DNA from: Octopus vulgaris
Lineage: Eukaryota
Direction of reading: 5' to 3'
NCBI GenBank assembly: GCA_951406725.2
Contig: OX597832.1
Span: 44,578,001 to 44,642,000, forward strand
Length of the DNA: 64,000 nucleotides
The notes under the pieces were generated by a model. It did no database searches and was not told the DNA's origin. It was given only the letters and a program-made list of their open reading frames with translations. How positions within the stretch are numbered: position 1 is the stretch's first letter; the number at the start of each line of letters is the position of its first letter. Of the stretch, positions 628-61,135 are shown one piece after another. The translations under genes and the position numbers were made by a program.

Positions 628-662
<35 letters not shown>

Positions 663-690
663 TGTGTGTGTACATGTGTGTATTTCTGTG

Positions 691-723
<33 letters not shown>

Positions 724-1464
724 ATGCATACACATACATGCATACATACAGTGGTAGGAAAAATGAAACAATGCATGAGTATATATATTTTGTTTATTTT
801 TAATCTTCAGAATTTACAAAGTGATTCAACGACCCAAAGTTTCATGCATGGCACTTGTCGGTGCCACGCATGAAACTTCTGGCACTTCGGCCAATTAAAA
901 AAACCCTCTTTCAATTAAAAAAGATAATAAAATATATAAATACATGTGCATAGATATATATAAATATATATATATATATATACACACATACACATATATA
1001 TGCACAGATATATATATATATATCTTATGATACACACATATATATATATTATAAGATTTTAAGTTGGTAATAGCATCTTTTGGTGTTTATTTTTCCAGCA
1101 CATGGAAAGGCTTATAGCCAACCTCTTGTTATAATAACTAATATATATACACACACACATATATATATATATACACACATATGTGCCGGTGGCACGTAAA
1201 AAGCACCCACTACACTCTTGGAGTGGTTGGCGTTAGGAAGGGCATCCAACTGTAGAAACTATGCCAAACCAAGATTGGAGCCTGGTGTAGCCATCTGGTT
1301 CACCAGCCCTCAGTCAAAATCGTCCAACCCATGCTAGCATGGAAAGCAGACGTTAAACGATGATGATGATGATGATGATACATACATATATATACACACA
1401 CACATCCATACCTAAACACACACACACATATATGTACATATATATGTGTGTGTATGTATATATA

Positions 1465-1504
<40 letters not shown>

Positions 1505-2169
1505 AATAGTTCATTTTATGTATTTAATGTATATATAGAAATAAAAACAGTTTTATGTTAACAGATCTCAAATAGTAGTTAGCAAAATTTGTAATAGCAA
1601 CACATCAAATGTTTGGGCGCATGCTTGAATGGATTAAAAGAAAACCAATAGATTATGGAAACCATATTTTGGAAAAACCTGAAAGGTAGAAAAATTGCAA
1701 AGTGTAATATTTGCATACCATACATACATACATGGCGTATTTATGAATGACTCACAGTGTGTTGTGTGTGTGTCTGTGTGTGTGTGTGTGTGTTTTAGTG
1801 ATAATGTCAAAAAGGGGGGAAAAAAAGAAGAACAAAAAGACAAAAACACTTTTATGTGACTAAAGTTTGGAAATATCTTAATGGGGAAAAAGAAAATAAA
1901 TAAAATTCTCGAAAATTTTAATTTCGTAATCAATCTCTGTCTTTGAAATATTGGTAATATTTGTGAACGAAATAAATGTAGCATGCAAAATAAAATATGG
2001 TTTAAGAATAAAAAGAAAAAGAAAAAACAAAAAAAAAATGGGAAAGAAAAGAAAAGAAATTCTATTATCACCTCCATTAAAATATGGCATGTGGACCACA
2101 TAAATCCAGAAGTTTCTTTTGATGGCTACAATGAATTAGTAATATATATATACACAGACACATACATAT

Positions 2170-2238
<69 letters not shown>

Positions 2239-2321
2239 TATATACATATACATATATATACATATATATATACATACATATATACATACATATATACATA
2301 CATATATATATACATATATAC

Positions 2322-2352
<31 letters not shown>

Positions 2353-2365
2353 CATATATATATAC

Positions 2366-2396
<31 letters not shown>

Positions 2397-2471
2397 CATA
2401 TATACATACATATATATATACATATATACATATATATATACATATATATATATATATACATATATATATAC

Positions 2472-2502
<31 letters not shown>

Positions 2503-2530
2503 CATATATATATACATATATATATACATA

Positions 2531-4954: not shown

Positions 4955-4985
<31 letters not shown>
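2531..4985 (+). mobile_element. 5'-truncated CR1-group non-LTR retrotransposon (LINE)
   Basis: Endonuclease C-terminus (SDH), full RT domain, short 3'UTR with stem-loop, (AATC)n tail; flanked by (TA)n arrays. Confidence 0.92.
2535..4886 (+). CDS. LINE ORF2, partial (APE end plus reverse transcriptase), about 783 aa uninterrupted
   Basis: Motifs [55 protein letters not shown]; the ORF-track extension from 1983 is microsatellite read-through. Confidence 0.92.
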
Positions 4986-5155
4986 CATATATATATACAT
5001 ATATACATATATATATACATATATATACACATATATACATATATATATACATATATATACATATATATATATATATGATATAATATATATATATATAATA
5101 TAATATATATATATATATAATATAATATATATATATATATAATATAATATTATAT

Positions 5156-5187
<32 letters not shown>

Positions 5188-5205
5188 ATATAATATTATA
5201 TATAT

Positions 5206-5381
<176 letters not shown>

Positions 5382-5607
5382 ATGTTTGTGGCTGGGTGCT
5401 TTGGAAACCTGGGTACTATAAGCTTCGACACACGTCTGTGTAGTTAACGAATCGGCTCTGAAAGTACATAGTTCCCACCTCAGTCCCACCACATAGCACT
5501 TTTATAAAATGTCTCTTACCATTGCATCAGATTTATCAATACCTTGTAACTGAGATTGAATAGATGAAAACTGTACAGAAGCTCATCATATATATATATA
5601 TACATAC

Positions 5608-5679
<72 letters not shown>

Positions 5680-5840
5680 TTATTTGCTTATGTCTCATAA
5701 ATTAATAGCTTGACAAACAGAGATTGATAACTTAAGTGTCAAAGTTAAAATATATCCTAGGGTAAATATTATCAACTAAACTCTTGAAAGCGGTTTCCCT
5801 CATGGTCATAATCCATATGCATATTATATATATATATATA

Positions 5841-6250
5841 GGCGCAGGAGTGGCTGTGTGGTAAGTAGCTTGCTAAACAACCACATGGTTCTGGGTTCAG
5901 TCCCACTGCGTGGCATCTTGGGCAAGTGTCTTCTGCTATAGCCCCGGGCCGACCAATGCCTTGTGAGTGGATTTGGTAGACGGAAACTGAAAAGAAGCCC
6001 GTCGTATATATGTATATATATATATATGTATGTGTGTGTTTGTGTGTCTGTGTTTGTCCCCCTAGCATTGCTTGACAACCGATGCTGGTGTGTTTACATC
6101 CCCGTCACTTAGCGGTTCGGCAAAAGAGACCGATAGAATAAGTACTGGGCTTACAAAGAATAAGTCTTGGGGTCGATTTGCTCGACTAAAAGGTGGTGCT
6201 CCAGCATGGCCGCAGTCAAATGACTGAAACAAGTAAAAGAGTAAAAAGAG
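5841..6250 (+). mobile_element. tRNA-derived SINE family A, full length
   Basis: A box TGGCTGTGTGG, B box GGTTCAGTCCC, CORE-like CTTGGGCAAGT, internal (TA)/(TG) tract, CR1-like tail ending (GTAAAAGA)n. Confidence 0.85.
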
Positions 6251-6257
6251 AGAGTAT

Positions 6258-6360
<103 letters not shown>

Positions 6361-6365
6361 CATAC

Positions 6366-6416
<51 letters not shown>

Positions 6417-6417
<1 letters not shown>

Positions 6418-6490
6418 TTAGGGAATATAATTCCAAACTTACAGGGGAAAATTCAATTTAGAACTACTAAATCAAGTTTCACAAAATATT
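6417..6490 (+). repeat. short repeat family adjoining (TA)n arrays
   Basis: ATTAGGGAAT..TCCAAACTTACAGGGAAAA..; copies near 12555-12640(-), 33590-33660(-), 38865-38930(+). Confidence 0.7.
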
Positions 6491-6495
6491 ATATA

Positions 6496-6549
<54 letters not shown>

Positions 6550-6686
6550 CATCATTTTGTATATTACCTAATCATTGGTTTATGTTTTTATCTCATATTT
6601 AATTTTTTCTATAGGATGTAATTTTTTTCTATATTGTATAATTTAATTTTTTCATTGTTGAATTGATAAAAGGTGCTTTTTTTCTA

Positions 6687-6727
<41 letters not shown>

Positions 6728-7005
6728 AAATGCCTACATCCCTAATATTTTGACATCTCTAGGCAATGTAAGTTGGATTAACTTTTGACCATAGGCTGAA
6801 ACAGCTGTAAGAAGTAGTCTTTGAATTTCAATATTTTATAATATGACTTTTAAAATCTGTATTTGTATTATTATCTTACCTATTGATTTATATAATATTT
6901 TGTTTGCTTTTGATGTTCTCATTTGTTAAATGAATAAATAATGTAACATTGTAATATCCATAAGTTGATGAACAAACTAAATTTGTTTCTCCGTTTTCTT
7001 ATTTG

Positions 7006-7048
<43 letters not shown>

Positions 7049-7102
7049 GATATATACATTACGAGTCGAGGCAAATATCAACAGCTGACCGGTGTCTGCT
7101 AG

Positions 7103-7147
7103 TCTAGGCCGACGAAGGACAATCATCCTGAAACACGTGTCCCTAGA
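7103..7147 (+). ncRNA. minimal hammerhead motif, U4C core variant
   Basis: TCTAGG-CCGACGA-AGGA-CAATCA-TCCT-GAAA-CACGTG-TC-CCTAGA. Confidence 0.7.
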
Positions 7148-8539
7148 TGCAGCCCGGGCGGCTGGAGGTATTTGTCTCCCCTTCGTAAATGTATACAAGG
7201 ACACAGGAAAAATGTGTCAAAGCCATCAGGAGGCGTCGATGCTTCCTAGGGCTATACAGTCACGTTCGTGTTAGATTGACAGTATACAACCATTCTATCG
7301 CCCCACCACCGTGCATGTCTCTACGAGAAATTTAGTATTTCTGATATATATATATAGTTGTCTGAGAATCCATAAGTCAATACAGTGAGTATATTGAGAG
7401 TTGCCAAGTGTATTAAATAATGGCCCAGTTATCCAACATCCATTATGAGACCAGTTGGTAAGATTAGCTACAATGGTTCTAAAATACTGTATACTTTTAT
7501 ATATATGCATGTGTATGTGTGTGTTTTTGTGTCTGTGTTTGTCCCTCACTACACTGCTTGACCCTGAGTAAGCTGGAAGGCTGTACCAGGCTACTGCCTT
7601 ACAATGATGATGATGGTGGCTGTGGTGACGAGGAGATAGAGGAGGAGGAGGAGAAGAAGAAGAAGAAGAAGAAGAAGACGAATAATAATAATAATAATAA
7701 TAATAATCCTTATTTTACAAGATTGAAAGAGTAATTCCATCTTTGGAGCAGAGGTGATCTGAATGGCTAAGGGCCAATTAGAAGGTAACACTAAAACATT
7801 CAAGTAAAACTAAACAGTTTAAAAAGTTTACAGACTCAACCTGCAAAAGACAACAGCAAAATCTCCTTTTAAATCATATTCTATTGTTTAAACAGAAAAA
7901 TTATTTTCCTCTATATACCCCCCCCCCTCTTGCCAAAAATATAATAACGGTCATCATTGCAATGTCTTTGATTAATATCTTGTTCGATCAAGGCTGACCT
8001 GCAACTAAACAATATTTATAGTATTTTGATACAGTCAGGAACACTTTACTACTAATTCCTCACTATGATGTAGGTTATCTAAATCAGAAAATATTCACAG
8101 ATAGATAGATATTTCTTTCCTTAACTATGCACCACCTTCACACAACTACACACAGACACACGCACACACACACACTATAAATCTATTTTCTTGGCTTGAG
8201 TTTCCTCAACCAACTGGAACAAACTCAACAGAGCAGGTTCTTGTATGGACAATTAAAAAAAAATCCCATTATATTAAAATGAACCATTCTAAAACAAAAC
8301 AAAACAAAAAACCCCACGAAAATACAAAACCAAAAACACATGAAACCTGCCGCCATTTCTTTCAGAGTTTCCCAATGACTTAGTTATTCAACAACATGTT
8401 TTATCATTTACTGATATTTATGGGAATCCGTCCTTTTATTGCTAAATTACCTAATAAACCATGCCTATTCTCTGAAACCGATTTTCTTTAAGAGGAAATA
8501 ACCAAAAAAAGGAAAGTATGTACTCATTATAATTTTCAT

Positions 8540-9871
<1,332 letters not shown>

Positions 9872-10442
9872 TTCTATTATCAAAGAAAATCTCAAGAGAA
9901 CCCATAACTTCCTTCATTTGCAAAATCAATAATCCTGGAGAGAATTATTTTGCTGTTATTTTAAACACCTTGAGTCATCTTAAGTCTTAAGTGAAAAGAC
10001 TAATATATGTAAACAGGTCAGAGAAACGAGAGAATATATATATTAAACATAAAATATCAATAAATTAAAATACATGAAAATATTATTAGAATGGTGAGTG
10101 CTGTGGAACTGAGATAAACTGTCAGGGAGACAATTCTATGGACTGAACCAGATGAGATTCTTTTATTTTAGATTGGTAAATGGAAGTCATGAATATCCCT
10201 GTCTGGTTCCTTTTTATCATAATTTTTTTCTTCATTTTCTTCCATTAAATCTAAATGTTATTTCCATTTATATTTGTCCCAGTTCCTGGACACCTAGACA
10301 GGCGCCATGATGTGGCACCATCCTGATCATCATTTACATTATTTAGATTTGACGGATATTTGTCCTCATCTTGTTTGTTGTTAACATGTTTTGGCTGATG
10401 TACTATCCACATGTGTGTATGCATGTATGTATGTATGTAGAG

Positions 10443-10485
<43 letters not shown>

Positions 10486-11663
10486 TAGATAGATAGATAG
10501 ACAGATAGATAGATAGACAGACAGATAAATACACATATGGATAAATAGATACCTCGATAAACAGATACACTCACACACACACAGAGGCTTCTGAAGGTTT
10601 CCATCTAAATTACTACAAAGCTTTGGACTATAATGAAAGAAATTTGTGTAAGGTATCACACAGGACTGAACCCAAGCCCAAATGGCTGTGAAGTCATCAT
10701 CATCATCATCATCATCATCGTCGTCGTCATTTAATATTCACTTTCCATGCTTTCCATGGGTTGGACGATTTGACTGAGGGTTGGCGAACCAGATGGCTGC
10801 ACCAGGCTCCAATCTTGATCTGGCAGAGTTTCTACAGCTGGATGCCCTTCCTAATGCCAACCACTCCGAGAGTGTAGTGGGTGCTTTTTACGTGCAGAGT
10901 GGATGCGAACTTATTATCTATACAGCTTGAATTAGAGTTTAAACATAGGTATAAATAACATTTAAATATCAGCTTTACCTCATGTAAAGCACAAATGACC
11001 AGTAATGGCAAAATCTTGATTCAAAGAGTATATAATAATCACATAAGCAACAAGATTTTCCAAAGAAAATTTGGTATATGGAAGAGAAAAAGATCACATA
11101 TGTAGTAGGTAAATTATTAATACATTTTACAAAGACATTATCTGAAACAGAAATAAAATGTTTAGTTTGAATCTAAGAGAAATCATACATTATGTTATTA
11201 AAATTCATAAATACTTTACATTTAACTGTACAACAAAAGAATATTGACTTCTGTGCTTAGAATTTCTGAAATTAATCTGGAAAAGGTTAAATGAAACATT
11301 GGTCAGAAAAACATCGCAAAAACCTAAAGATCACACAATGTTTGGCAAAAGATATTTTTACATGAATAGGATTAAGTTAAACATCTGTCTAGCAGTGAAA
11401 TAAAAATAATTTCAAAGTTCAGTGACCTACCTGCAACCTGTGAAACATTTAGGTGAAGAGACAAAGTAATTGTCTTATAAGCCATTATAAGTTGCCGGAT
11501 AACAGCTGAAGGTTTAGTCTTTGGGTAGAGAGTAGTTCAAGACGATGACGTATTGGAATGGTTACTTGTCTGATGCCTTATATAAAACTCATGGGAGATC
11601 TTTGAGCCAAGTACAGCAAGATTAATTAACCCTTTAGCATTCAGACTCCTCTGTCAAATATAA

Positions 11664-11990
11664 CTGGTACTCTGTTGGTTATGATAACGAGGGTTCCTGT
11701 TGACCTGATCGATGGAACAACCTGCTCTTGAAATTAAAATGCAAGTGGCTGAGTATTCCACAGACATGTGTCCCCTTAATGTAGTTCTCAGGGAGATTCA
11801 GCATGACACAGAATGTGACAAGTCTGGCCCTTTCGAAATACAGATACTACTAATTTTTGGCAGCTGAGTTGACTGGAGCAATGTGAAATAAAGTGTCTTG
11901 CTCAAGGACACAATGTGTTGCTAGGAATTGAACTCCTGACCTTATGATTGTAAGCCAAACACCCTAACCACTAAGCCATGCACCTTCACT
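11664..11990 (-). mobile_element. tRNA-derived SINE nested in a piggyBac-type MITE
   Basis: tRNA-like head at the 11990 end; 14-bp target duplication TCTGTCAAATATAA at 11650-11663 and 11991-12004. Confidence 0.8.
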
Positions 11991-12362
11991 TCTGTCAAAT
12001 ATAATGTTTATCTATTCACATTAAATTAATCATGCATTATCTTATAGCTTCAAAATTTCAATGATGTGACTGTTTATTTTCAGAATGACATTGTAGGAAA
12101 GAAGTGAGAAGTCTGATCTGACCAGTTTGAAGATAAAAATGGGAAAATATTTGGGCCTGATATGGCTGGTTTAAATGCTAGAAGATTAAGCATCAACAAG
12201 TTATGCAGTACCATCACAGTTTTATAGATGCCAAATTTACCATTCCATGGTATAGGACTATTGATATTTTAGAACCTTATTGTATTTTGTCAGTTGTAAG
12301 TTTTTGTTGAAGAAATGAATGAGTTGTAGGTTTTTAGACTCAATAAATAAATAATAATCGTA

Positions 12363-12393
<31 letters not shown>

Positions 12394-12454
12394 CAATGGA
12401 CTTCCACACAATTTCCATGTATCATATTCCTTCAAAAGGCATTGGTTGGCATGG

Positions 12455-12504
<50 letters not shown>

Positions 12505-12635
12505 ATTAGAAAAAAAACACCTTTTATCAATTCTAATTTTTTATATATATATTATATAGTGTGAAATTTGATTTAGTATTTCTAAATTGAATTTTTTTTT
12601 TTTTTCCTTGTAAGTTTGGATTTTATTCCTTCAAA

Positions 12636-12686
<51 letters not shown>

Positions 12687-12768
12687 AGTAGAAGACACTT
12701 ACCAAAGTGCCATACAGAAGGAATGAACTTGAAACTATGTGATCGCAAAGTGAGTTTCCTAACTTCAC

Positions 12769-12825
<57 letters not shown>

Positions 12826-12846
12826 AATATATAAATACATACATGC

Positions 12847-12879
<33 letters not shown>

Positions 12880-12978
12880 AATATATACTAATACACCTGT
12901 TTGTTTTGTACACCACCTGTCTTCGTCTTTTGTTTTTCTCGTAAACTTACCCTATATATATATATATAAATACATATA

Positions 12979-13021
<43 letters not shown>

Positions 13022-13026
13022 GTATA

Positions 13027-13415
13027 CTCTTACTCTTTACTCTTTTACTTGTTTCAGTCATTTGACTGCGGCCATGCTGGAGCACCGCCTTTAGTCGAGC
13101 AACTCGACCCCGGGACTTATTCTTTGTAAGCCCAGTACTTATTCTATCGGTCTCTTTTTGCCGAACCGCTAAGTGACGGGGACATAAACACACCAGCATC
13201 AGTTGTCAAACAATGCTAGGGGGACAAACACACACACATATATATATATACATATATATACGACAGGCTTCTTTCAGTTTCCATCTACCAAATCCATTCA
13301 CAAGGCATTGGTCGGCCCGGGGCTATAGCAGAAGACACTTGCCCAAGATGCCACGCAGTAGGACTGAACCCGGAACCATGTGGTTGGTTAGCAAGCTACT
13401 TACCACACAGCCACT
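13027..13415 (-). mobile_element. SINE family A copy
   Basis: Near-identical reverse complement of 5841-6250. Confidence 0.85.
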
Positions 13416-15532
13416 CCAATATTAATTAGAAAACCGTAGGTGAAATAAGAAACAAATATGAAAGATTACAATGCAATAAAGGTATTTTTATTTGCCCATT
13501 CCAACATACATTTACAGGTATTGATTAAGGAGGGAATAAACGAAGCTTTTTCCACCTCAGATGCTACGTTGCCGTTATATAAGAGTCATGCAGAAATTAT
13601 TAATAATAAGGAAACAACGAAAAAAATTATAAAAAAAAGAAAGACAAACAAACCAACGAATGAAATAAATGAAAGTAAAAAAAAAAGAAAATTTTGAGCA
13701 CATGTATGAAAAAAAAAAACAGACAACAACAATAAAAAAAAAAGTAATAAATAAAGGACAGCCCAAATATTGATGCCATAAAATAATCGGTAACTTGCTG
13801 ATAAGCAATGTAGTATGTCATGAGAATCTTGGGAAAGCTATCTGATGTCATAGTATGCATGAGTGCAAAAATAATTTCAGAAGAAAATATTACCAGAGAT
13901 TACTAACAAAAATAGAAGACAATTTTTTTTTTTTGCTTGTTTCCAATATATAAATATCAACTGTTACAAATACTCAACAAAATGAAGCAAAATGATAGAC
14001 AATCTAGAACAGTAGTTCTCAAATGGGTTCCATGTAAGATTTTGTTAAAATTTATATGCAATAAACTGGTTAAACTTTTACAGTACACTAAATATTTTAG
14101 CAATTATTTTAATACAATTCCTGGTAACTGATATTTAATTATAAATACATAGTAGGATTTCTTAAGCCCTGAATAGCTATGAGGGTCCATTCATGTAAAA
14201 TAGGAATCAAAGGGGGTCATAGGTAAAAAAAAAAAAAAGGCTAAGCGCTGATCAAAAACATTGGTTCCAAAACTACAAATGTAAATCTTAGAATATGTAA
14301 GAAAAGTCTTATATTTAATTTATTTTATTATTTTTAATCAGCAGAAGTTATGAAGTGACTCAAGGGTTGAGAATATCGTGGACGGCACTTATCAAATTTT
14401 TGGGTCACTTTATAAGTTTTGCTAATTAAAATAACATCTTCAAATTCTTGTACAGGGCCAGTGATTTTGCAGGGTGGAGTAAGTTGATTACATCGACTCC
14501 AGAGCACAATTGGTACCTATTTTATCGACCCTGAAGGGACGAAAGGCAAAGTTGACCTCAGTGGTGTTTGAACTTAGAATGTAAAGCTGAAGGAAATGCT
14601 AAGCATTTTGTCTGGCATAGTAATGGTTCTACCATTTCACTGCCTTCTTTTGAGTAAAATAAAATATATTTACTCATGTACTGAGTTTTGTTTATCTTGT
14701 TCTACCAAATCTATATTTAATCTATAAATATGAACAAGACATGTCAAAATGATAAGACCAACTGAAGAAATTTACAAAGCTTAACTAATTATTACACTAA
14801 TTATTATGTTAACTATAATCTTTTCTACTCTGGGCACAAGGCCCAAAATTCTTGGGGACGGGGCTAATCGGTTAGATCGACCTCAGTACGCAACTGGTAC
14901 TTAATTTATCAACCCCGAAAGGATGAAAGACAAAGTCGACTTTGGCGGAATTTGAACTCAGAATGTAAAGACAGACGAAATAGGCATTTCGCCCGGCATA
15001 CTAACTATTCAGCCAGCTTGCCATCTTACAATGTTAACTATAATAAGAACAATATAACTAGATGTGTATAGAGGCTTTAAGTGACTGATTGGACTATAAA
15101 TTATATACTGTAGGACAGACAGGATCCAGGCTTTGCTGAGGTGGATGGTGAAGGAAGGCAAAAGGAAAAGGAAACAAAAAGAACAAATAAGAATAAAGAT
15201 AGGCAGGTAGAATTAGATGTGGGCTTAATTCCAGTCTGCAAATGATTGAGAAAGCCACAGAAATGGAAACATACCACTGATATATCGCTATTTTTTTTCT
15301 CCAATTCATGTAATAATAAATTAATATGATCAATTTAAAATAACAAAACTTTGGATACCAGTAAAACACAAGAAATAAATATAAAAAATAAAGCCATATG
15401 TGAAAGAACAATAATTCTAAAAAATGGTTCACTGGCATATCCTAATGGGAATACTCAGAGTGTACAACTAATGTCCTACTGAGTATATTGTTTGTACAAT
15501 GGACATTGTTACAGAGACTGTACACAATTTTA

Positions 15533-15710
15533 ACAACTGACATGTCCAAATGAGAAAATTCAGAGCAGATAGCTGAAATATCCTAGTGAGTATACCATTT
15601 ATACTCAGTTGACATACTCCCTTTGTACAACTGACATGTCCTGGTGAGAAAACTCAGAGTGGACAGCAGAAATGTTATAAGGAGTATACCATCAATACTC
15701 AGTTTGCATA
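15533..15710. repeat. degenerate tandem duplication of about 94 bp
   Basis: ACAACTGACATGTCC..TGAGAAAA.TCAGAG..GAGTATACCAT..ATACTCAGTT occurs twice, with related words at 15450-15490. Confidence 0.7.
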
Positions 15711-17020
15711 ACTAATACAATCCAATGTTTCTTTGGATGTAACTTTTTTGATTTGTTTAAGAACAAGTTAATGTTATTTTCAATTAGCATAAATTACATT
15801 TTTTGTTTACCTTACTCTAAAAGTCATCACTAAGCACTTGGCCTAGTGGTTAGGGTGTGGCACTCATGATCTAGTGATCGTGAATTCAATTTCCAGGTCA
15901 TGCAGTGTATCGTGTTCTTGAGCAGCCCTAACTAAAAGAACTATGATCAGAGGTTTTTGGCCTTAACAAGCTCCTCCTTTTAGGCACAATCCATCTACAA
16001 CTACTCTATCTAATGCATCACTTAATTTCATGTCCCTCTGCGGGAGGGAGTATGGTAGAATCATTGGTGCGTTGGCAAAGATGTTTTTGGTATATCTTCT
16101 GGCTCTCTACATTCTGAGTTCAAATCCCACCTGCCTGGAGAAGGCAACAGAAAACCAAACCACTCCAGAATTCATTCCGGGTCTAGTGATAGTAGCCAAA
16201 GTTTCAGAGGGAGAGGGATAAGTAGATTACATCAACCCCCAGTGTGCAACAGGTACTTATTTCATCAACCCCAAAAGAATGAAAGGTAAAGTTAATCCTG
16301 GCAGCATTTGAACTCAGAATGTAAAGATGGATGAGATATCATTAAACATTTTGTTCAGCATGGGCAGGAATGATTCTGCCAGCTTGCTGCCTTAATAACG
16401 ATAATAATAATAATAATAATTACTATTATTATTTTACTGTTATGTGTAATTTTTTCTTCCCCTTCATTAAAATGGTCAATTTGGTTACAGATGGACATGT
16501 TAATTAAACATCAATAGACATAAGAGTTGCAATAATAGTTCTGTTGATATTTTACTTTCGATTCTAATGAGAAGCTATATTCCATTATTATCCGGAGTAA
16601 ATCTAAGCTATCTTTTGTAATAATAAGATGGCTTTTGCAGCGTTAGAAATAGCAGATAAAAGGCAACTGAATATTAAGAATGCTTCTTAAGTCTAAATAA
16701 ATACAATTAATTTTGTTATCTTAGCGAGTGAAGGATTAATTAACAACACATAAAGGTAATGAGATTCTGAAATTTCATGTAACGATTGTGCTAAGAATAA
16801 TATAACAGAGTCTATCTAAAAATCTAAGTGTTTATAATCTATAGATGCAAGCATGGCTGTGTGGTTGAGAGGCTTCCCAACCATGAGGTTTTGGTTTCAG
16901 TTCCACTCTGCAGCACCTTGAGCAACTATAGCCCCAGGCTGACCAAAGCTTTTGTTAGTGGATTTGGTAGATGGAAACTGAAACTAAACCTGTAGTATAC
17001 TTGGTATATTTAGTATATAA

Positions 17021-17230
17021 GGCAGCGAGTAGGCAGAAATGCGTAGCCGTATTTCGTCTGTTGTTACGTTCCGAGTTCAAATTCTGCCGAGGTCGACTTT
17101 GCCTTTCATCCTTTTGGGGTCGATAAATTAAGTACCAGTTACGCACTGGGGTTGATGTAATCGACTTAATCCCTTTGTCTGTCTTTATTTGTCCCCTCTG
17201 TGTTTAGCCGCTTGTGGGTAGTAAAGAAAT
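17021..17230 (+). mobile_element. SINE family C
   Basis: B box GAGTTCAAATTC plus GCCTTTCATCCTTTCGGGGTCGATAAATTAAGTACCAG body; relatives near 14450-14645, 14820-15030, 16190-16390, 26800-27010, 32530-32730, 51840-52050 (minus) and 56960-57180 (plus). Confidence 0.75.
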
Positions 17231-17679
17231 ATATATTTGGGTGTGTACATTTATTCATACCTATTTCTTTATTGACATCATGTAATAACTGTAACTGAGC
17301 ATCACTGTCATACAAGTGGTGTTGTTTGCTTCCTGTCTTACAGAAAGAAAAAACAAACATGTCTAGCTATGGGGAAATATTACCTTGCTTGGAAACAGGC
17401 TGATAACAAGAAGGGTATCTGGTTGTTGAAAAACCTGCCTCAACAAGTTCCATCTGACCCATGCAAGCCTGGAAAAGTTGACATTAAACAATGATGATAT
17501 TTCTCCTCAGTTGTATATAGAATTATTCATGAGCAAGTTTTAATCTCCTAAAATTCTAGAATGGCGTAGAAATATCAGGTTTTGAATCTAGAAAAATTCC
17601 AAAACAGAATATGAATATTAATATTAAAAAAAAAAAAAAGAAAAGAAAAAGAAAAAAGGCCAGTATTTTAACTGATTTA

Positions 17680-18025
17680 CTCTCTCTTTTACTCTTTTAC
17701 TTGTTTCAGTCATTTGGCTGCGGCCATGCTGGAGCACCGCCTTTAGTCGAGCAAATCGACCCCGGGACTTATTCTTTTGTAAGCCTAGTACTTATTCTAT
17801 CGATCTCTTTTGCCGAACCGCTAAGTGACGGGGACGTAAACACACCAGCAGCAGTTGTCAAGCAATGCTAGAGGGACAAACACACATATATATATATATA
17901 TACATATATATGATGGGCTTCTTTCAGTTTCCGTCATCTACCAAATCCACTCACAAGGCATTGGTCGGCCCGGGGCTATAGCAGAAGACACTTGTCCAAG
18001 ATGCCATGCACACAGCCACTCCTAC
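17680..18025 (-). mobile_element. SINE family A copy with head deletion
   Basis: Matches 5841-6250 with part of the tRNA head missing. Confidence 0.8.
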
Positions 18026-18660
18026 TTCTAATAATAGTTTACCTATACAAAACCAAATATTTCTAATTCAAGTCACCAACAGGAGAGGAATTTTAGCTAA
18101 TATGGCTCTGCTATGACCAGCTTTCATGTTACCTAGTTAAAATGCATGGAGTTATGAAAATATATATTTTCAATGCTTTATCCTTCTATAAAACAATCTT
18201 TACAGGCTGAACAGCATTTTAAAAATTTGCAATTTAAAATCTATAAAACTGACAGCCAGTTGCCAGAGGAGACAAACAGCATTTTAGCTTTATCATTCTA
18301 TCCCAAATACATATACACATGTGCTACATATATTCTGTATATGCGTGTGTATTGTAAATATATATTACATACACATCTACATTTTTTAAACAATGTGAAA
18401 TGTGCTCATAAAAAGAGACCATATATGAAAAATAACAAAATGTGAGAACTAAATTCTAAGTTTTATTTTTTATACATGTTTAGTCTTTATATCAAGCAAC
18501 TCCAAGTTTGTTTAAATACACTGCAAATATGTGTGTGTATGTGTGTTTGCAAATAAAATTAATGTAAGCTCACACACATGTATATATTACACACTGTGCA
18601 TGTATGTGTATGTGCGGGTGTATCTATATCTATTTATATAGCATATATCTTGTATATGGT

Positions 18661-18966
18661 GGAGGCGCAATGGCCCAGTGGTTAGGGCAGCGGACTCGCA
18701 GTCGTAGGATCACGGTTTCGATTCCCAGACTGGGCGTTGTGAGTGTTTATTGAGCGAAAACACCTAAAGCTCCACGAGGCTCCGGCAGGGGGTGGTGGTG
18801 ATCCCTGCTGTACTCTTTCGCCACAACTTTCTCTCCCTCTTTCTTCTGTTGGCCTGCTCGCTTAGCCAGCGGGGTGGCGTCATTTGAAGGCTAAAAACAA
18901 TGCGAACGCATTGTGACCAGCGATGTGTAACAACATCTGATGGTCTGGTCTGGTCGGTCACGTGAT
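18661..18966 (+). mobile_element. tRNA-derived SINE family B
   Basis: Head GGAGGCGCAATGGCCCAGTGGTTAGGGCAGCGGAC...GGTTTCGATTCCC; ends (GGTC)n-CACGTGAT. Confidence 0.8.
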
Positions 18967-20051
18967 ATCTTGTATATATGACCTATATTGTTGTTTTGTT
19001 TCAAAGCAGCCCTAACTGAAAGAGCTATGATCAGAGGTTCTCGGCCTTCGCAAGCTCTTCCTTTCAGGCACAATGCATCTACAACTACTCTATCTAATGC
19101 ATCATTCCATTGTATATTTTCTTCTTTTGTAAGACTTATGTGATTTTGAGTTTTCTGTCAGGCCAAGCAGCAATGTAGAGGTTATCCTTTAGCTTCATAC
19201 AGACATACATACATATATCTGATGATATAGTTTAATCCTACATACCCATGAAACTAAATTGTATGGAGCTGAGTCAAACTTATTAAAATATATACGTAAC
19301 TCCAACCAAATGTATTGAGTGCTACATTCTTTTATTTGTTCATACTCATTTGTGTGTGAGTATATATATATATATCATCATCATCATCATCATCATTTAG
19401 CATCCGCTTTCCATGCTAACATGGGTTGGACGGTTCAACTGGGGTCTGGGAAGCCAGAAGGCTGCACCAGGCCCAGTCTGATCTGGCGATGTTTCTACGG
19501 CTGGATGCCCTTCCTAATGCCAACCACTCCATGAGTGTAGTGGGTGCTTTTTACGTGCCAGATGGGACTTGCAAACGGCCACGGTCGGATGGTGCTTTTT
19601 ACATGCCACCGGCACAGGGGCCAGGTGAGGCTGGCAACGGCCAAGATCAGATGGTGCCTTTTACGTGCCACCGGCACACCCACACACACATATATAAATA
19701 TCATTATTATTTACGTAATATAGTCTCATGGCAGCCATGTCTGATGATTACCATTTTTACCTCTACATTTCTGAAAGCATTTTAGCACGAAACCATTTCG
19801 TAACATTAATTGGCTGTCATGAGACTATAACATTATATAAATAAAAATATACCCAGTCTGTTCCCTAACTGATGAAAATCTATATAAATTGACACTTAAC
19901 TGGAAGTTCTTGCGAGATTCTCAAGGGGAAAGAACTCTCTTCCCTCATAACTGGGTTTTGAAAGTAGAATTAGAATGTCTTAACTTTAATCTCAAACACA
20001 TCTCAAAGTATTTTTCAGTAATATAAGAAACTAACATAAAAGGAGTATTAA

Positions 20052-20273
20052 ACTTTTCGTTACCGTATTTATTTTGAGATGCTCTGTGTTTCTTTCAAAT
20101 AATTTTAAATATAACAAAGAATTTAGTAAAAGAACTTAGTTATCATTCAGCTAGTGTTGGGAACATAAATTGTGACTAAGGTTTGGTGGAAGATTTTAAT
20201 TCAGAACTTATGAAAGTAAGACATTTGTACTACAGAGCCAGAGGCGGTTTTGGCCGGGTTGTTATCAAAAGGG
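20052..20273. mobile_element. piggyBac-type MITE, family 1 copy
   Basis: Reverse complement of 29534-29753, flanked by TTAA. Confidence 0.8.
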
Positions 20274-20369
20274 TTAAAAATACTCTACTGAAATGAGACG
20301 TAGTATTTGATTACTAATTACCTTACAAATACACAGTAGTTTTAATTCAATAATTAGGATTGGTAGTCT

Positions 20370-20750
20370 TTTCTTTCCTTTACTTGTTTGAGTCATTAGA
20401 CTGCAGCCAAGCAGGGCACCACCTTGAAAAATTTTTAATCAAATGAATCAACCTTAGTACTTAATTGTCTTTTTTTTCAAGTCTGGAACTTATTCTATTG
20501 GTCTCTTTTGCTGAACTGCTAAGTTATGGGGATTCAAACACACCAACACCAGTTGTCAAGTGGCGATTGGGGGGGGGGACTAATACACATGATGGGCTTC
20601 TTTCAATTTCCGTCTACCAAATTCACTCACAAGGCTTTGGTTGGCCTGAGGTTATAGTAGAAGACACTTGCCCAAGGTGCCATGCAATGGGACTGAACCT
20701 GGAACCATGTGGTTGGGAAGCAAACTTATCACACAGTCACGGTTGTACCT
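20370..20750 (-). mobile_element. SINE family A, diverged copy
   Basis: Same head, body and tail order with more substitutions; partial relatives at 235-480, 16845-17000 and 31915-32065. Confidence 0.7.
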
Positions 20751-22229
20751 ATAGTAATTAAAAATGTTGATTATAAGCAATATCTCAATATATCTCAGAG
20801 AGAAAGGAGTGGGGATGGTAGAATCAAGAGGTCATCAGATAAAATATCCTGTAATATTTAGTGTTGTACCTTTAGAGTTCAAATCTTGAAGTCTGTTTAA
20901 TCTTTTTTTTCCTTCTGCAGCCAATTAAATAAGCATCAGAGGTCAAATAATTTAACATACCTTTGCTAACAAAAGTTGTGGCTTTCTGCTAAAGTTAGAG
21001 ATCAATATTGTATATAAAAGTAGGGCAGTAGAGGTGGCCAAAACAATAGAGTGTGCGGTTGAATCTGTTTTACTGTAGCTAGTTCAATAGTTCACTGTTG
21101 CAAGTTCAGATTGTGATAGAACTGACAAGTCCATTCATTCTTTTAGACAAAATAAGTATCAGCAACAAAGTGGAATCAATTTATTCAACAATAACCATCT
21201 TTTATAAATGTTGGCCCTATGTCTAGTGAAATGAAATCAATATTATCTTAGTTTTTCACAATATTTCCACACAAACCGTATGTGGTAAATAGCAGCATTT
21301 ACTGCATAAAGCTGTCTCTATATATCAATGGTTTGTTTTATCTACGTTCTCTTTACAAAGATAACTTATATGCAAAAGCTATTAGGGGAAGGGGTAAGCT
21401 AGTACATCAGTTCAGACCCCATGAATATCTGACAGAGCAACCCTTGCCTAAATTAAAAAAAAAAATTCTCCTGGCCACCTTGAATTTCGAGAAGCTGCTT
21501 ACTCAGGGATAAGAAGCTAGGGCAAAAGTGCAGTTTCCCTTCTTGCAAAATTTCTCTTGGAGGTCTTGCCTATACATATTGAATACAACAAAAAATGGAA
21601 GCTAAGCCCTCAATGAGCCTTATCTGCCTCCTGGTTTCGATATCAAAAACGGTCATTTAACTTATAATTTATTGCTAATGCTTTTGGAAAAACAAATGGC
21701 TTCCCTAAAAATCAGCCTTAATAACTATTAGAAAAAGTGCAGATAAAGCACTCCATAGTATGTAAATTTTTGCTGTGACATTATGACAGAATGATGAAAA
21801 GCAGCATCAAGATATCATCATGAAAAGCAGCATCAAGTTATCATTAAGCTAGAGTTGGGAACATAAATTGTGACTAAGGTTTGGTGGAAAATTTTAATTC
21901 AATACTTATGAAAACAAGACATTTGTACTACAGAGCCAGAGGCGGTTTTGGCCGGGTTGGTATGAAAAGGGTTGGGAACAAAAATCTATCAATCATAGGG
22001 ACTACAACGTTAACATCTTTATTTATGATGGCTAACAACAATTTATCAATACCTTCTAGTGAAGCAGCTCCGATCTATTTGACTATGCCTGGATATAAAA
22101 TACTTTAATGATGATTGTCTACTAAGTGGCTGGGGTAAAATAAAATAAAATAAATAAATATAAAGCAAAGCAAAATTATAATGAAATTATTAAGTTTTAA
22201 CAGATTAGAATTTGTTTTCTACAACAAAC

Positions 22230-22235
22230 TTTATT
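22230..22235 (-). terminator. candidate distal Rab6 polyadenylation signal
   Basis: AATAAA at the end of a long U-rich, UTR-like minus-strand stretch with U-rich sequence downstream. Confidence 0.3.
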
Positions 22236-23450
22236 ACAGTTAAGACCAAAATATTGGTAAGTTATAATAATGTTCAACAGAATAACATTTTTTTTTTTAC
22301 TTTGAAATAAATTAAAAAATTGACAATGCAATTATAATTCCAATGCCTCGGTGGTAATAATTCAAAGTAATGTACAAAAATAATAGAGGGGAAGGAGAAC
22401 CGTTCTAGATAAATAAAGTTTTGTCAAAAAACCCCACTTAACTCCCGACCAAGTTATTTTGTTTTGAGAAATAAAATAATATGAATAAACTGAACTATTA
22501 AATAAAACTAAAATATGAATTCTACATTTACCCAAAGTACCAAAGTAAAAAAATAAAAACAAAATGCTAAAAATGCCAGAAATGTTTTTTTTTTTGTTAA
22601 ATATATAAAAAGGACAATTTAAAAAAAAAAAGCATTTAAAAATAAAAATAAATAACCAACTGTCCAAAAATAAGAATTTATTATAAAATTTCTGAAAACA
22701 CTTATGCTTCTATAGGGGACAATTCATTTTTTACATTAAACAAAACAAAACAAAAAAACAAACAAACAAAAAACAAACAAGCATAATATTCACATTACCT
22801 GAGATACATACATACATATACACAGAAGTCTAAGTTTACCTTACATATAAATCGAAATGGTCAGTTAGCACAGAAGTAGAAACAGCAAGAAATATGTAAG
22901 CCTGTCTTAAAGAGGCATCTCAAAGCAAATTCAATTATAAATAATAGCTTATGATACATCTATGTTAAAAAATCCTTAGACGGATATAAAAAAAAAAGCA
23001 GAAAGTTGATATCTGTAGGACTCAAACCATACACCTTCACACCTTCTGTAACTCCATGTATTATAAACTATTATTTGTAGCTGAATTTGCTTTGAGATAC
23101 ATCGTTTATAAAGATTTGTTTAACTAATCTATTGGTTGAAAATATTTAGACACTGAATATTTTCAGTGAAGCATCTGAAAATGACTCAATGAAAATTTGG
23201 AACTGTGAAAGTCCATATTTATATTTCCCATTACTTTTAACACTAAAATAATTCCATATCAAAAGTAATGCTACTGGTAGTATTTCTCTGCAGATCGTCC
23301 AATGATATATGTATATGGATGGGCAGACCCTGAAGCAATTTGAACTAACAAGATGAATGTTTAAGTATCAAACTTGATATCGCAAAGCATTTAGTGTAAC
23401 CCTGCTCTCTCCTCTGACTATCACACATCCACAACAATCTAATATCTTGA

Positions 23451-23483
<33 letters not shown>

Positions 23484-24614
23484 TGCTACAACTATGAACA
23501 GTACATTTGCTGTTAACTGTGTTTCTTGTGCAGAATGAAGACTGAGATTTCTTACCAGAGAGGATATGAGGAACTGTAAACGGTTGTCTTCCATAAGGGT
23601 ATACTTATAAATGAGTGAATGGAAACAAATCCAAGTGGAATTGTCCTCCAAATAGGTTAAACTTACACTAACAGCCTTAAACAATCCTTATTCAGGGACG
23701 TTTTGAGCGGGATGGGCTACTCAACCTGAAGAAAATTCTAACTGGGCCCCACCTGCAAGGTCATGCGCTGTTTATCTTGATATGAGATTACCATGTTGCG
23801 CACATATGGTTGTGATGCATGTGCCTAGTGTACCCTTATCAGGCGGGTAGTCATGATGGGTATATTGGGCTTCGTATATTTTACCCCAGTGTCACTTTGA
23901 TGGCATGCATTGTACTCTCTCACTCAATAATAATAATAATAATAATAATGATAGTAATAGTAGTAATAATAGTAGTTGTTGTTATTATTATTATTATTAT
24001 TAGCAGTGGATTGCCAGAATTGTTAGAGCATCACACAAAATGCCTAGCAGTATTTGTTCCAGTTCTTTACATTCTGAGTTCAAATCCCACCAGGTTCACC
24101 TTTTGCTTTTAGTCCTTTTGGGTGCAATGACATGCCATTCCAATACAGAGATGGATCTAATCAACCAACCAATCAGCCTTATCACACTCCAAATTTCTAG
24201 CCTTTTGCTTATATTATTATTATTATTATTATTATTATTAGCTAAAAGAAATTTCTTAGTGAATTAGATTATATAAGATGCACTAATTCAACTGAAATAA
24301 AGTTTAAGACAAAAGAATGGCTCAAGGCTAAGATTTTTCTGTTTTTTTCTTTTGTTTTTAATTAGGATCGCTGAAAGCCAAAAAACAAAACATTCCCAAG
24401 AGAAATAGACCAATTAACATAAATGAGAAAATAAGATCAATTAAACATAATTATGCAAGGAGTTGAAAAAACAAAACAAAAAAAAAACTAAACAAGATAA
24501 TTTCTGGTCCAAACCTGTTTGTGTTCAAGACTGGTGACATTCCGGACACACAGACACACACACACACACAAAAAAGAGAAAGATATAGTTCTAGAAGGAA
24601 AAGAAAGTTGATGT

Positions 24615-24620
24615 TTTATT
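24615..24620 (-). terminator. candidate proximal Rab6 polyadenylation signal
   Basis: AATAAA on the minus strand about 710 nt after the stop, followed by a GU-rich tract (24570-24546). Confidence 0.4.
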
Positions 24621-24642
24621 TGACATCATCATCATCATTATC

Positions 24643-24673
<31 letters not shown>

Positions 24674-25331
24674 GACATATTAAGTTATATTGGATTTTTA
24701 TACAATTACCAAGTTTTCTAAGGAGAAAAAAAAAATTTAAAAAAAAAAGCACTGTGCCTCACAAAAGCAAAAACAACAAAGCATCCAAAATAATAGACAA
24801 AAAAAAAAGACACAACCTGTCCCCCCCCCACGCACTAAAAAAAAAAGGAGAAAATCAAACAAAAAAAAAAAAATTATAACAACATACACATATACACACA
24901 TTCAAATTGAATCAGCCATGGCAACAAGTTCATTAATGTATTTTCGATTCTGAAGGGTTAGCTACAGAGGTAAAGTCAACCTTGAGTCTGATATGGCTGT
25001 TGGTTTGTTTATATTCATTTTTTTTTTCCTCTCACAGAACTCTTCTTTAAAAAAAAAGTATAGTCAGATGACAGACATATTCAGACAATGAATGTTCTGA
25101 TGCTTTTGTATTTTTTTTTTATTCATTTTATTTTATTTTATTTCTCATTTTTTTTTTTTTTGAAATTTTTATTAATATTTTTTTTTCTATACATATTTCC
25201 CCATTTGCATTATTCCGTAATAATAAAATGTTTTTTTCTTTCTCTCATTTTTTGTTTGTTTTGTTTTGTTTTTTCTTTTCTTTTTTTTCTTTTTGATACT
25301 CAACAAGGGATGAATTATTTGTATTATTACA

Positions 25332-25399
25332 TCAACAACTACAGCTGCCTTCTTGCGTTTGAGGCTCGGCTGGCGTCTCCTTCAACTTTACCTCTGTCA
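25332..25399 (-). CDS. RAB6: Rab6 terminal coding exon with CXC geranylgeranylation motif
   Basis: Reads ctctcag|(M)TEVKLKETPAEPQTQEGSCSC*; phase 1 matches the previous exon; ends CSC like other Rab6 proteins. Confidence 0.93.
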
Positions 25400-26297
25400 C
25401 TGAGAGCAACGGTTAAGGAAAAAAAAAAAAACACAAAAAATTCAACATTACAAAACTAATAACCAAACTGACAAGCAGCTTTTGACAAATAAATGGACAT
25501 GCACATGCTGTTAGATTTTTTCACTATTTTTTCTTTTACATTTGCTAATTCACAGAAAGCCAATCTAAGAATTTTGGCATAAGAAGCCAGTGCAGTTAGT
25601 GTTGCATTTGAGCTGTTAAAGACGACAAACTGGAAGGATAACACAAGCAGGGAAGGAGGTAGGGAATGAGCAAGTGATCTCAAGATAGACACAACAAGGA
25701 GAAAGAGTCAGTGTGGCTGAAGAAAAAACAGAAAAAGCATGCATTACCAATAGCTTCTGAGTGAGAATTTGGAATTTGGATACGGGTAGCAGTTACAAAA
25801 TTACAGAAATGGCAGAAGAGGCTGAGGGCAGACATAACTTATTAACGATCACGATGATCAAAGAGTTTTCACTGAGCGTGAAGTGGATGGTTTAGTTCAG
25901 ACGGGTCTCGTAAAATTAGTGGCGGCACACTCTTTGAATATGCAAAATAATTCTATACATCAAGATAGATTAAAAAAAAAGATAAATGAATAAACGGATA
26001 CAAAAAAAAACAAAAAAAAAGATAAATCAAAATAATTTTCGGTAATAATAAGTTAATTATAAATCAATAATCCTTCAAAGGAACGGTTTGCATATGTGTA
26101 GATGAGATCATTTTAATATTGGAGAATGTATGGAAGGAACGATGACAATAGGGAAAGGATTTAGACTACACAAAGAAGTTTCAATGATTAAATATGAAAT
26201 GCTGTAAAAGTTTTAATGAGAGAAAGAGGAGAGAGAGAGAGAGGGAGGAGAGAAGAGATAGAAAAGATACACATAAATACACACATATTTATATAAA

Positions 26298-51730: not shown

Positions 51731-53582
51731 ATATCAGCTATATAATGACCAAGAGAAAGCCAGGATGGTCATGATGGGAATGTGTTTGATCACAGGTTTT
51801 CTCGATAAGGGCTGACCAGAGGCAAAATAACAACAATAATCCTTCATACTATAGGTATAAGGCTAGAAATTTGCAGGGAGGAGGTAAGTCGATCACACTG
51901 ACCATAGTACTTAACTGGTACTTGATTTATTGGCCCTGAAAGGATGAAAGGTAAAGTTGACCCCAGCAGCATTTGAACTCAGAACGTAAAGTCGAACAAA
52001 ATGCCGCTAAGCATTTTGTTAGGCGTGCTAACAATTTTGCCAGCTCGTTGCCTTAACAACAACAACAACAACAATCATCATCATCATCGTTTAACATCCG
52101 TTCTCCATGCTCGCATGGGTTGGACGGTTCGACCGGGGATCTGGGAAGCCAGAAGGCTGCACCAGGCTCAGTCTGATCTGGCAGTGTTTCTAAAGCTGGA
52201 TTCCCTTCCTAACGCCAACCACTCCGTGAGTGTAGTGGGTGCTTTTTACGTGCCACCGGCACAGGTGCCAGGCAAGGCTGGCAATGGCCACGATCGGATT
52301 GGTGCATTTTATGTGACACCGGCATGGAAGCCAGTCAAGGCGGCGCTGGCATTGGCCATGATTCGGATAGTGCTTTTTATGTGCCACCGGCACGGAAGCC
52401 AGTCTAGGCGGCGCTGGCAAATATTGAAAAATTATTTTAAAATAACAATCCAAGCATAGACTCTATCGGTACTGGACTACACTATTGAGTCAATGAGTTA
52501 TCCAGATTAGTCTCCAGTTCAGATTAGTCTCCATCACGGACTTGGAGTTTTCCTTTGTATTGATCAACATGTAGAGAAAAGAAAATCTTGCGCTGAGATG
52601 TCTTAGCTTGATTGTGGAAAGGAGTGCGTCTAAGTCTGTGACATTTAATTTTTTCAGAATTTATTGGTTCTTAATGAACAGTTCAAACCACTTTGATGTA
52701 TTGATAGCAATATAATTATTAAAAACTAATGAACAGATCACACAATGGATAAGATAGACTATCTGGAAGGCTTTGATGAGAGAGAGAGAAGGAAGGAAGG
52801 TGGGTGTATTATTTAGTGAAACTTCTATCAAAACTGAATTGATTTCAAAAGGTGTTAACGTAGAATAGATGAATTTAAGAACAATGCGTTATTAAATATC
52901 TTTCCATCTTGAACGCAGCATACATTTGTTGCCTTATTTGTCAACGTATGCTAATGAAAGCGATTAAAATCTCGTGTCCAACTGAACGAATGATGATATC
53001 TTAAATTATTCTGTTCTTATTATTCCTTAACAAAAGGCTAACACCTTCTTTAAAAAAAAAAAAAGAAAAAAAGCCATGGAAATATAAAAGTTACTTGGAA
53101 ACAGCAGAGATCAAAAAGAAATGATGAAAGAATTAAATTAAGTTGGATAAATTTTAAGCAAAAAAAAATTAATTAATTAAAAAAAAAAGCCCTGAATTTC
53201 TGTTGAAGGTTTACACACTAAGAACAGTGGTTACAATGGTTTACCATTGTAACTATTATGGATGGTAATGCATAACATGTGTGTGTGTGTGTGTGTGTTA
53301 ACTATTGTGGATTCTTCCTTATTATGATACATAAAAGGTAAAAATGAATAACTCAACGGAAAAGTGAATAAAAATGGAAACAAACGTAAAAAAAAAATAC
53401 AATAAGAACGGAAAGCATGCAATGGAAATGAAATATGTTAGGAGAATGGAATTGTAAAATCACAACAGCTCCAAGAAAACATTGAGGGTGGTTGAGGGAA
53501 GAATGGGCGAGGGAACAGAACTATCAGCCACTGATGCAAGGTGAAGATAACAAAAAGAGTTACAGAAAGCAGTTATATTTTA

Positions 53583-53592
53583 GCAAGGATAC
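53583..53592 (-). promoter_or_regulatory. second candidate U12 5' splice site
   Basis: GTATCCTTGCT, identical over 11 nt to the main donor, 125 nt downstream. Confidence 0.55.
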
Positions 53593-53717
53593 ACAGAGGC
53601 AAAAGAAGAGGCGAGAGGGAGGGAGGGAAAGGGAAGCGAGAAATATGTGGTCCATGTGAAACGAAAATGAACAATAATAAATTTGAAGCTTTGCTGAAAT
53701 ATTTGAAGCAAGGATAC

Positions 53718-53781
53718 TTTCTCCTGGTTTCTTGGTTTCCTGCTCCATTCCAGGTAATGCAGCAGCCACTCGACGGAACAG
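53718..53781 (-). CDS. RAB6: Rab6 penultimate coding exon
   Basis: Reads tttttcag|LFRRVAAALPGMEQETKKPGE+A|gtatccttg; 64 bp; ends in phase 1. Confidence 0.96.

Positions 53782-55738: not shown

Positions 55739-55942
<204 letters not shown>

Positions 55943-60274: not shown

Positions 60275-60472
<198 letters not shown>

Positions 60473-60952: not shown

Positions 60953-61135
<183 letters not shown>

Follow-up and report, generated by a model that had tools for sequence, protein, structure and literature searches.

Rab proteins that end in CXC are doubly geranylgeranylated by RabGGTase through REP, and the tail variants of KRAS and CDC42 arise from an exon layout with major-class introns. Minor-class introns are on record for Rab6: supplement rows of PMC6717393 list RAB6A and RAB6B of human and mouse and human RAB41 as minor-intron genes. 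In MAPK8/9 and TMEM87A/B mutually exclusive exons lie around a minor intron and give productive, tissue-specific isoforms, according to the available excerpts of PMC8329584 and PMC6717393. A 2012 review, in the part available, treats alternative U12 acceptors as possibly errors and says that U12 introns are almost never alternatively spliced (PMC3584512), and excerpts of a 2021 review describe the regulated cases as U12/U2 competitions (PMC8329584). Our literature search, which was partial and left subscription papers and supplements largely outside, returned no account of a Rab6 with a minor or U12 intron or of the two-exon layout described below. Here we analyzed a stretch of 64,000 nt from Octopus vulgaris (contig OX597832.1, positions 44,578,001 to 44,642,000; 'the window'), for which a first-pass annotation had proposed that two U12 donors could swap the tail of Rab6.

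The Rab6 gene and its U12-type intron

With identity to the annotated protein as the test, the gene on the minus strand of the window is Octopus Rab6: its five-exon chain, when translated, equals residues 62-208 of Octopus sinensis Rab6 (XP_029648288.1) with zero differences, which upholds the name given to it earlier. Genome-wide, we found a single Rab6 locus. The features of the gene are the following (window positions, except for exon C).

60961..61066, minus strand: Rab6 coding exon, U2-type borders, matches the XP_029648288.1 chain
60276..60387, minus strand: Rab6 coding exon, U2-type borders
55811..55904, minus strand: Rab6 coding exon, U2-type borders
53718..53781, minus strand: penultimate Rab6 exon, 64 nt, phase-1 end, LFRRVAAALPGMEQETKKPGE
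53707..53717, minus strand: donor 1, U12-type 5' splice site GTATCCTTGCT, common to both last exons
25400..25420, minus strand: last exon B, U12-type branch site TTCCTTAAC (A at -14) with AG acceptor
25332..25399, minus strand: last exon B, coding part, (M)TEVKLKETPAEPQTQEGSCSC*
1..25331, minus strand: 3' UTR of exon B and remainder of the longer intron
G000:C19:44576557 (L002 1565-1498), 1,444 nt past the left window edge: last exon C, (N)IELKPPEPSVDPSDPDAGCSC*, with branch site TTCCTTGAC, A at -17

The constitutive acceptor of the penultimate exon is 53782, and an unspliced read-through from this exon into the intron ends ...YNCFL*, with no prenylation motif. The annotated O. sinensis isoform X2 (XP_036367218.1, P0006), a protein of 190 aa that ends ...KKPGESIEL* and has no cysteines, looks like a mix of read-through (S) and exon C (IEL) at its end; no exon matching this end was found in the window or in L002, L026 or L027, and the isoform is possibly an assembly or annotation error. 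The window also holds a third GTATCCTT at 62718-62725 (minus strand), reading GTATCCTTG, within an upstream Rab6 intron; it is within chance expectation, and no exon was seen beside it.

Donor 1 and the second copy discussed below both match the U12 5' site RTATCCTT as GTATCCTTGCT, with G instead of T at +9. U12 branch sites (TTCCTTRAC) are expected roughly 10-20 nt ahead of the acceptor, and we observed the branch A at -14 for exon B and at -17 for exon C. We further collected 46 Rab6 loci from metagenome contigs, in 9 of which RTATCCT lies at the same phase-1 position as donor 1; the other 37, which were excluded from the count of second donors, have no RTATCCT 40-110 nt behind the exon start and are spliced, have lost the intron or carry a variant donor. 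Judged by its 5' site, its branch sites and this shared position, the intron after donor 1 is U12-type, in agreement with the minor-class assignment made earlier, and splicing at either acceptor would be carried out by the minor spliceosome. One component of it is encoded in the genome, with five U11 snRNA matches above the Rfam cut-off. These matches are located on contigs C3, C15, C17 and C18 (L003-L005), and two of them are near-identical copies on different contigs.

Judging from translations alone, the Rab6 intron seems to have changed to a U2-like donor (read-through SK, CK or CE) in some animals (L037, L038, L053, L055, L065 and L071), seems to have a variant donor (SIF) in L029, L043, L045, L046 and L052, and seems lost in L036, L048 and L051, where the acceptor lies upstream and the tail is continuous. 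Loci of these three kinds would make up a natural series of minor-intron fates. In the window, the first ~25 bases of the intron (53693-53717, minus strand) seem conserved past the U12 consensus, the read-through of the intron start being SILASNIS here and SILLSNHS or SILLSNYS in four cephalopod-like ORFs. Such a conserved start could be an element for the choice of the last exon.

Two last exons behind one donor

The intron from donor 1 to exon B measures 28,318 nt and that to exon C 55,160 nt, the two exons lying 27 kb apart. Exon C, which is outside the window and absent from the first-pass annotation, was located in the same genome at 100% identity and has an AG acceptor; within the window, tblastn found no tail C. 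AATAAA signals are present 3' of exon B (25173-25123). Joined to exon B or to exon C, donor 1 keeps the reading frame and both products end CSC*. The same two tails are found in the cephalopod Rab6 cluster after ...KKPGE, one reading MTEVK...CSC (B) and the other NIELK...CSC (C): tail B, MTEVKLKETPAEPQTQEGSCSC, occurs in O. sinensis (P0004) and in similar form in Sepia (P0008), and tail C, NIELKPPEPSVDPSDPDAGCSC, in O. bimaculoides (P0007) and Argonauta (P0009). Two squid-like proteins, P0003 with tail C and P0011 with tail B, are identical over residues 1-186, and their source contigs, of at most 1,136 and 3,524 nt, are shorter than the unspliced gene, so that splicing likely yields the two forms within a single squid-like lineage. 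Between Octopus and the squid-like proteins tail C is identical in 22 of 22 residues and tail B in 18 of 22. C-like tails, known from proteins alone, were also observed in the gastropods Babylonia and Littorina and in Priapulus, each annotated as isoform X2.

From these sequences, one U12 donor and two U12-type last exons would give two alternative CXC tails, and we consider the two-last-exon layout, taken by itself, very probable. The idea that the gene swaps its hypervariable tails is borne out, as both tails occur in proteins, but the swap would run through two acceptors and last exons instead of the twin donors put forward earlier. No other CXC exon was found behind 8 further U12-like branch sites in the window, and the 20 kb past exon C hold no U12-like branch site and gave no further CXC exon. 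Three other animals also have last exons of the B type (M...CXC) preceded by U12 branch sites, at +1709 (L035), +1246 (L039) and +495 (L042) from the donor, which makes these introns far shorter than the 28 kb of Octopus. Behind the stop of exon C (L002 1497-480, minus strand) long AT/GT dinucleotide runs dominate ~1 kb.

A second copy of the U12 donor

The candidate second donor and the sequence around it comprise three features in the window.

53582..53592, minus strand: donor 2, second GTATCCTTGCT, head of unit 2, putative
53593..53717, minus strand: unit 1 (125 nt) of a likely tandem duplication, now decayed; putative exon extension, ends TGC CTC TGT
53465..53592, minus strand: unit 2 (about 128 nt) of the same likely duplication, with a CTGT end like that of unit 1

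What had been described here at the level of the letters was confirmed throughout. GTATCCTTGCT occurs on the minus strand at 53717 and at 53592, the starts lying 125 nt apart, and the two donors are identical from +1 to +11. Use of the second would give an exon of 189 nt (63 codons, phase 0), of which 64 nt reach to donor 1. The 125 nt in between are 74% pyrimidine and open in frame, being stop-free in all three frames. The extension ends TGC CTC TGT and exon B starts TGA, which creates an immediate stop, ...KKPGESILASNISAKLQIYYCSFSFHMDHIFLASLSLPPSRLFFCLC*. By conceptual splicing, the hypothetical protein from donor 2 and exon B has 228 aa and ends ...RLFFCLC*, so the C-terminal CXC that marks a RabGGTase substrate, CSC in the two regular products, would be retained as CLC. 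With exon C instead, use of donor 2 would shift the frame, and the product would lack CXC. The GRAVY value of the CLC tail is +0.85, compared with -0.88 and -0.75 for the CSC tails, and the CLC tail looks like a translated pyrimidine-rich intron.

We compared the two units in several ways. The alignment pairs 111 bases, 85 of them identical, and contains 31 internal gap positions. At gap costs of -4/-1, unit 2 outscores 6,366 of 6,366 window segments when the first 8 or 11 nt are removed, and 3 of the 6,366 reach its score when 19 nt are removed. With the motif removed and the same gap costs it ranks above all 155-157 composition-matched segments, and it stays within the top 0-2.5% of 155-160 such segments in every setting tried. 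The similarity is reached by 2-48 of 1000 shuffles in three of four scoring schemes; in the strict local scheme with the motif removed it is reached by 253-374 of 1000 and is not significant. Tandem Repeats Finder reported no array for the duplication, and in a sliding test a segment 60 nt further scored equal to the in-register one (26 versus 26). The unit before donor 2 scores 51.5 against intron unit 2 and -16.5 against the exon. Taken together, the alignments suggest that donor 2 heads the second copy of a head-to-tail duplication which began at the donor and has since decayed; we hold this to be likely, not certain. The breakpoint would coincide with the donor itself, and for that the duplication offers no explanation. 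From the CTGT at the end of both units, the last Cys codon is probably older than the duplication. Inside unit 1, GCTTCAAAT occurs twice, 20 nt apart (53680-53709, minus strand), a further sign of micro-duplication.

Donor 2 might also be a chance match in a pyrimidine-rich intron, with the similarity of the units as low-complexity noise. The 8-mer of GTATCCTTGCT is indeed not enriched in the window (3 observed, 2.36 expected), and 8-mer pairs spaced 105-130 nt number 99 genome-wide compared with 200 in the reversed control, many of them in tandem repeats; the missing array and the non-significant strict local alignment point the same way. However, from the composition another copy is expected no more than 200 nt from a given donor in 0.36% of cases (p = 0.0036) for 8 nt and in 0.004% (4e-5) for 11 nt, from which we conclude that a second copy beside a given donor needs a cause. 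Together with a motif-masked similarity at or near the top of the 6,366 segments and the like ends of the units, this makes a chance origin highly unlikely.

Coincidences in favor of a third tail, and their weight

If donor 2 were used and selected, Octopus would make a third, lineage-specific Rab6 of 228 aa whose hydrophobic 42-residue CLC tail would be prenylated and targeted differently. The open frame, to which the first-pass annotation drew attention, carries little weight in this question: the 125 nt are open in 33% of shuffles and in 16% of intron windows, read-through ORFs of 23-115 codons lie behind the same donor in relatives, and since all three frames are free of stops, the openness of this one is uninformative and no sign of selection. 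The CXC is a different matter. An open frame together with CXC occurs in 0.03% of shuffles and in 0.13% of 11,874 intron windows, to which a further 1-in-3 must be added for phase. The CXC end in the right phase is a real coincidence that favors the earlier proposal and is its strongest point. A perfect 11-nt donor and a phase 0 that meets the TGA exactly add to it, and with the stop in the last exon nonsense-mediated decay would not be expected. Two U12 donors sharing one acceptor do exist in MAPK8/9 and TMEM87, as far as the available excerpts of PMC8329584 and PMC6717393 go. Against selection stand, besides the three open frames, the intron-like character of the tail with its high GRAVY value, the frameshift and loss of CXC with exon C, and the shared CTGT, by which the last Cys codon was probably present before the duplication.

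The comparison with relatives also speaks against a selected third tail. Of the 9 metagenome loci with the donor, one has just 96 nt downstream; the other 8 extend 200 nt or more past the donor, and two of them (L035 and L040) look like near relatives. None of the 8 has a second RTATCCT within 200 nt, and the nearest lie at +1198 and +1810. Three cephalopod-like read-through ORFs span the position (P0001, P0002 and P0017; P0013, with 23 codons, ends short of it and was left out), and none of the three can encode a second GTATCCTT in any frame or has a CXC there, although two could encode ATATCCTT further down. These DNA comparisons covered distant relatives. Protein searches with the extension, which gave 3, 2 and 5 matches from collections that miss rare isoforms, returned no CLC-tailed protein: the matches are genomic read-through ORFs of other species, a Rab6 of the ordinary kind, and two proteins (P0019 and P0020) that are repetitive and unrelated and were rejected. 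A CLC tail is likewise absent from all 10 proteins in the cephalopod Rab6 cluster. In the relatives compared, the search for the second donor and the CXC came out against the proposal (0 of 3 read-throughs, and no second donor at any of the 8 metagenome loci). A tail swap by the twin donors finds no support in this evidence: donor 2 fits a decayed duplication, is absent in the relatives compared, and its product was not found in proteins. With the coincidences on one side and these results on the other, we regard a used and selected donor 2 as unlikely.

A third role could be played without splicing. Donor 2 might bind U11 as a decoy or USSE-like enhancer that defines the long intron, suppresses intronic polyadenylation or biases the choice between exons B and C. 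The first 11 nt have stayed identical while the rest of the copy decayed, in SNRNP48 and RNPC3 a tandem of U12 5' sites works as an enhancer that binds U11 (excerpts of PMC3584512, PMC8329584 and PMC5473595), and polyadenylation-like hexamers are found at 52665 and 52649. But an 8-mer would survive by chance at this divergence in about 1/5 to 1/3 of cases, as a rough estimate, and relatives make both tails with no detectable second GT donor. Furthermore, USSE sites are deeply conserved and neither is a donor, whereas here donor 1 is real and the pair is seen at 0 of 8 other loci. A decoy function is quite unlikely in our view. Between the donors two AGs, at +23 and +28, follow poor pyrimidine tracts, and the acceptor at 53782 would be a possible target of the USSE type. 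A JNK-like alternative exon starting at these AGs was considered and rejected, as the acceptors are weak and the product would drop the conserved LFRRVAAAL segment.

Discussion

The explanation that we favor, and hold to be reasonably probable, is that one conserved U12 donor serves two last exons and two CXC tails, and that donor 2 is the remnant of a duplication and at most a minor cryptic site. In this scheme U11/U12 would join donor 53717 to exon B across 28.3 kb, and polyadenylation after B would end the transcript; on read-through past B, the same donor would be joined to exon C across 55.2 kb. Both predicted proteins have 208 aa and the same G domain, differ in the last 22 residues only, and would be geranylgeranylated on CSC. 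For tails this short, disorder is to be expected. After the Octopus line left the relatives compared, the first ~125 nt of the intron would have been duplicated head to tail and then decayed. Some splicing may be diverted to the U11 site carried along in the copy; joined to exon B this site would yield a by-product ending in CLC and joined to exon C a frameshifted one, neither of them with a selected role.

Two observations count against the duplication remnant as a full account. A neutral copy does not predict an open frame with CXC (0.03-0.13%, with the 1-in-3 for phase) in a gene where CXC matters, and with the donors identical from +1 to +11 the sequence gives no bar to the use of donor 2. 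The corresponding arrangement, two U12 donors by two U12 acceptors up to 55 kb apart, with a third, hydrophobic and prenylatable CLC tail born from the intron and productive only with exon B, appears doubtful to us. Should donor 2 be in use, intron DNA would have given rise to a prenylated tail, which would be a rare event; if it is neutral, it shows tolerance of a copied U11 site. In either case it is of less weight than the two-exon layout. With one donor facing two full U12 acceptors, the locus would be a clean natural test of 3' site choice by the minor spliceosome and of its coupling to polyadenylation. Two forms of Rab6 that differ only in a 22-residue tail would allow a direct test of the role of the tail in localization and effector choice, in an animal with one Rab6.

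A known counterpart is the minor intron of RAB6A and RAB6B in human and mouse and of human RAB41, which, like that of Octopus, has an GTATCCTT donor after an exonic A and a U12 branch site (supplement rows of PMC6717393). From phase 1 and the 9 metagenome loci we infer that the Octopus intron is homologous in position to it. The introns listed for these genes span 258-14,009 nt, compared with 28 and 55 kb in Octopus, and each gene is entered with a single intron; of the eight supplement files three name Rab6, and none of these shows another last exon or donor (PMC6717393). Alternative U12 3' splice sites as in THOC2 and TCTN1 resemble Octopus in that one U12 donor meets several acceptors (available part of PMC11039992). 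Unlike in such cases, the Octopus acceptors have their own branch sites, lie 27 kb apart and each open a conserved coding last exon.

MAPK8/9 (JNK) and TMEM87A/B come near to the idea of twin donors in that two U12 5' sites can join one U12 acceptor (excerpts of PMC8329584 and PMC6717393). In these excerpts, each donor closes its own exon with its own U2 acceptor, whereas donor 2 in Octopus would lengthen the same exon, and we found no second related coding exon before it (51.5 versus -16.5). The switch supported in Octopus is on the acceptor side, unlike the donor-side switch described there. The USSE of SNRNP48 and RNPC3 shares with the Octopus pair two U12 5' consensus sites in tandem, but there neither site is a donor, the sites activate a U2 acceptor that lies upstream, and their conservation extends from plants to animals, according to excerpts of PMC3584512, PMC8329584 and PMC5473595. 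In Octopus one site is a true donor, the two are 125 nt apart and the pair is not conserved, so the comparison with USSE made in the first-pass annotation fails on two features: donor 1 gives annotated proteins, and the pair is missing from the 8 loci and the 3 read-throughs. In protein design parallels, as far as the texts available on them extend, are KRAS4A/4B and CDC42/CDC42b, where, as in Octopus Rab6, one small-GTPase G domain receives two alternative lipidated tails by splicing; those are Ras and Rho family proteins with CaaX tails, and the Octopus protein is a Rab with CXC and a minor-class intron. Set beside these systems, the sequences make the twin donor a probable scar of a duplication restricted to one lineage, and suggest that the conserved tail switch probably runs via two minor-class acceptors.
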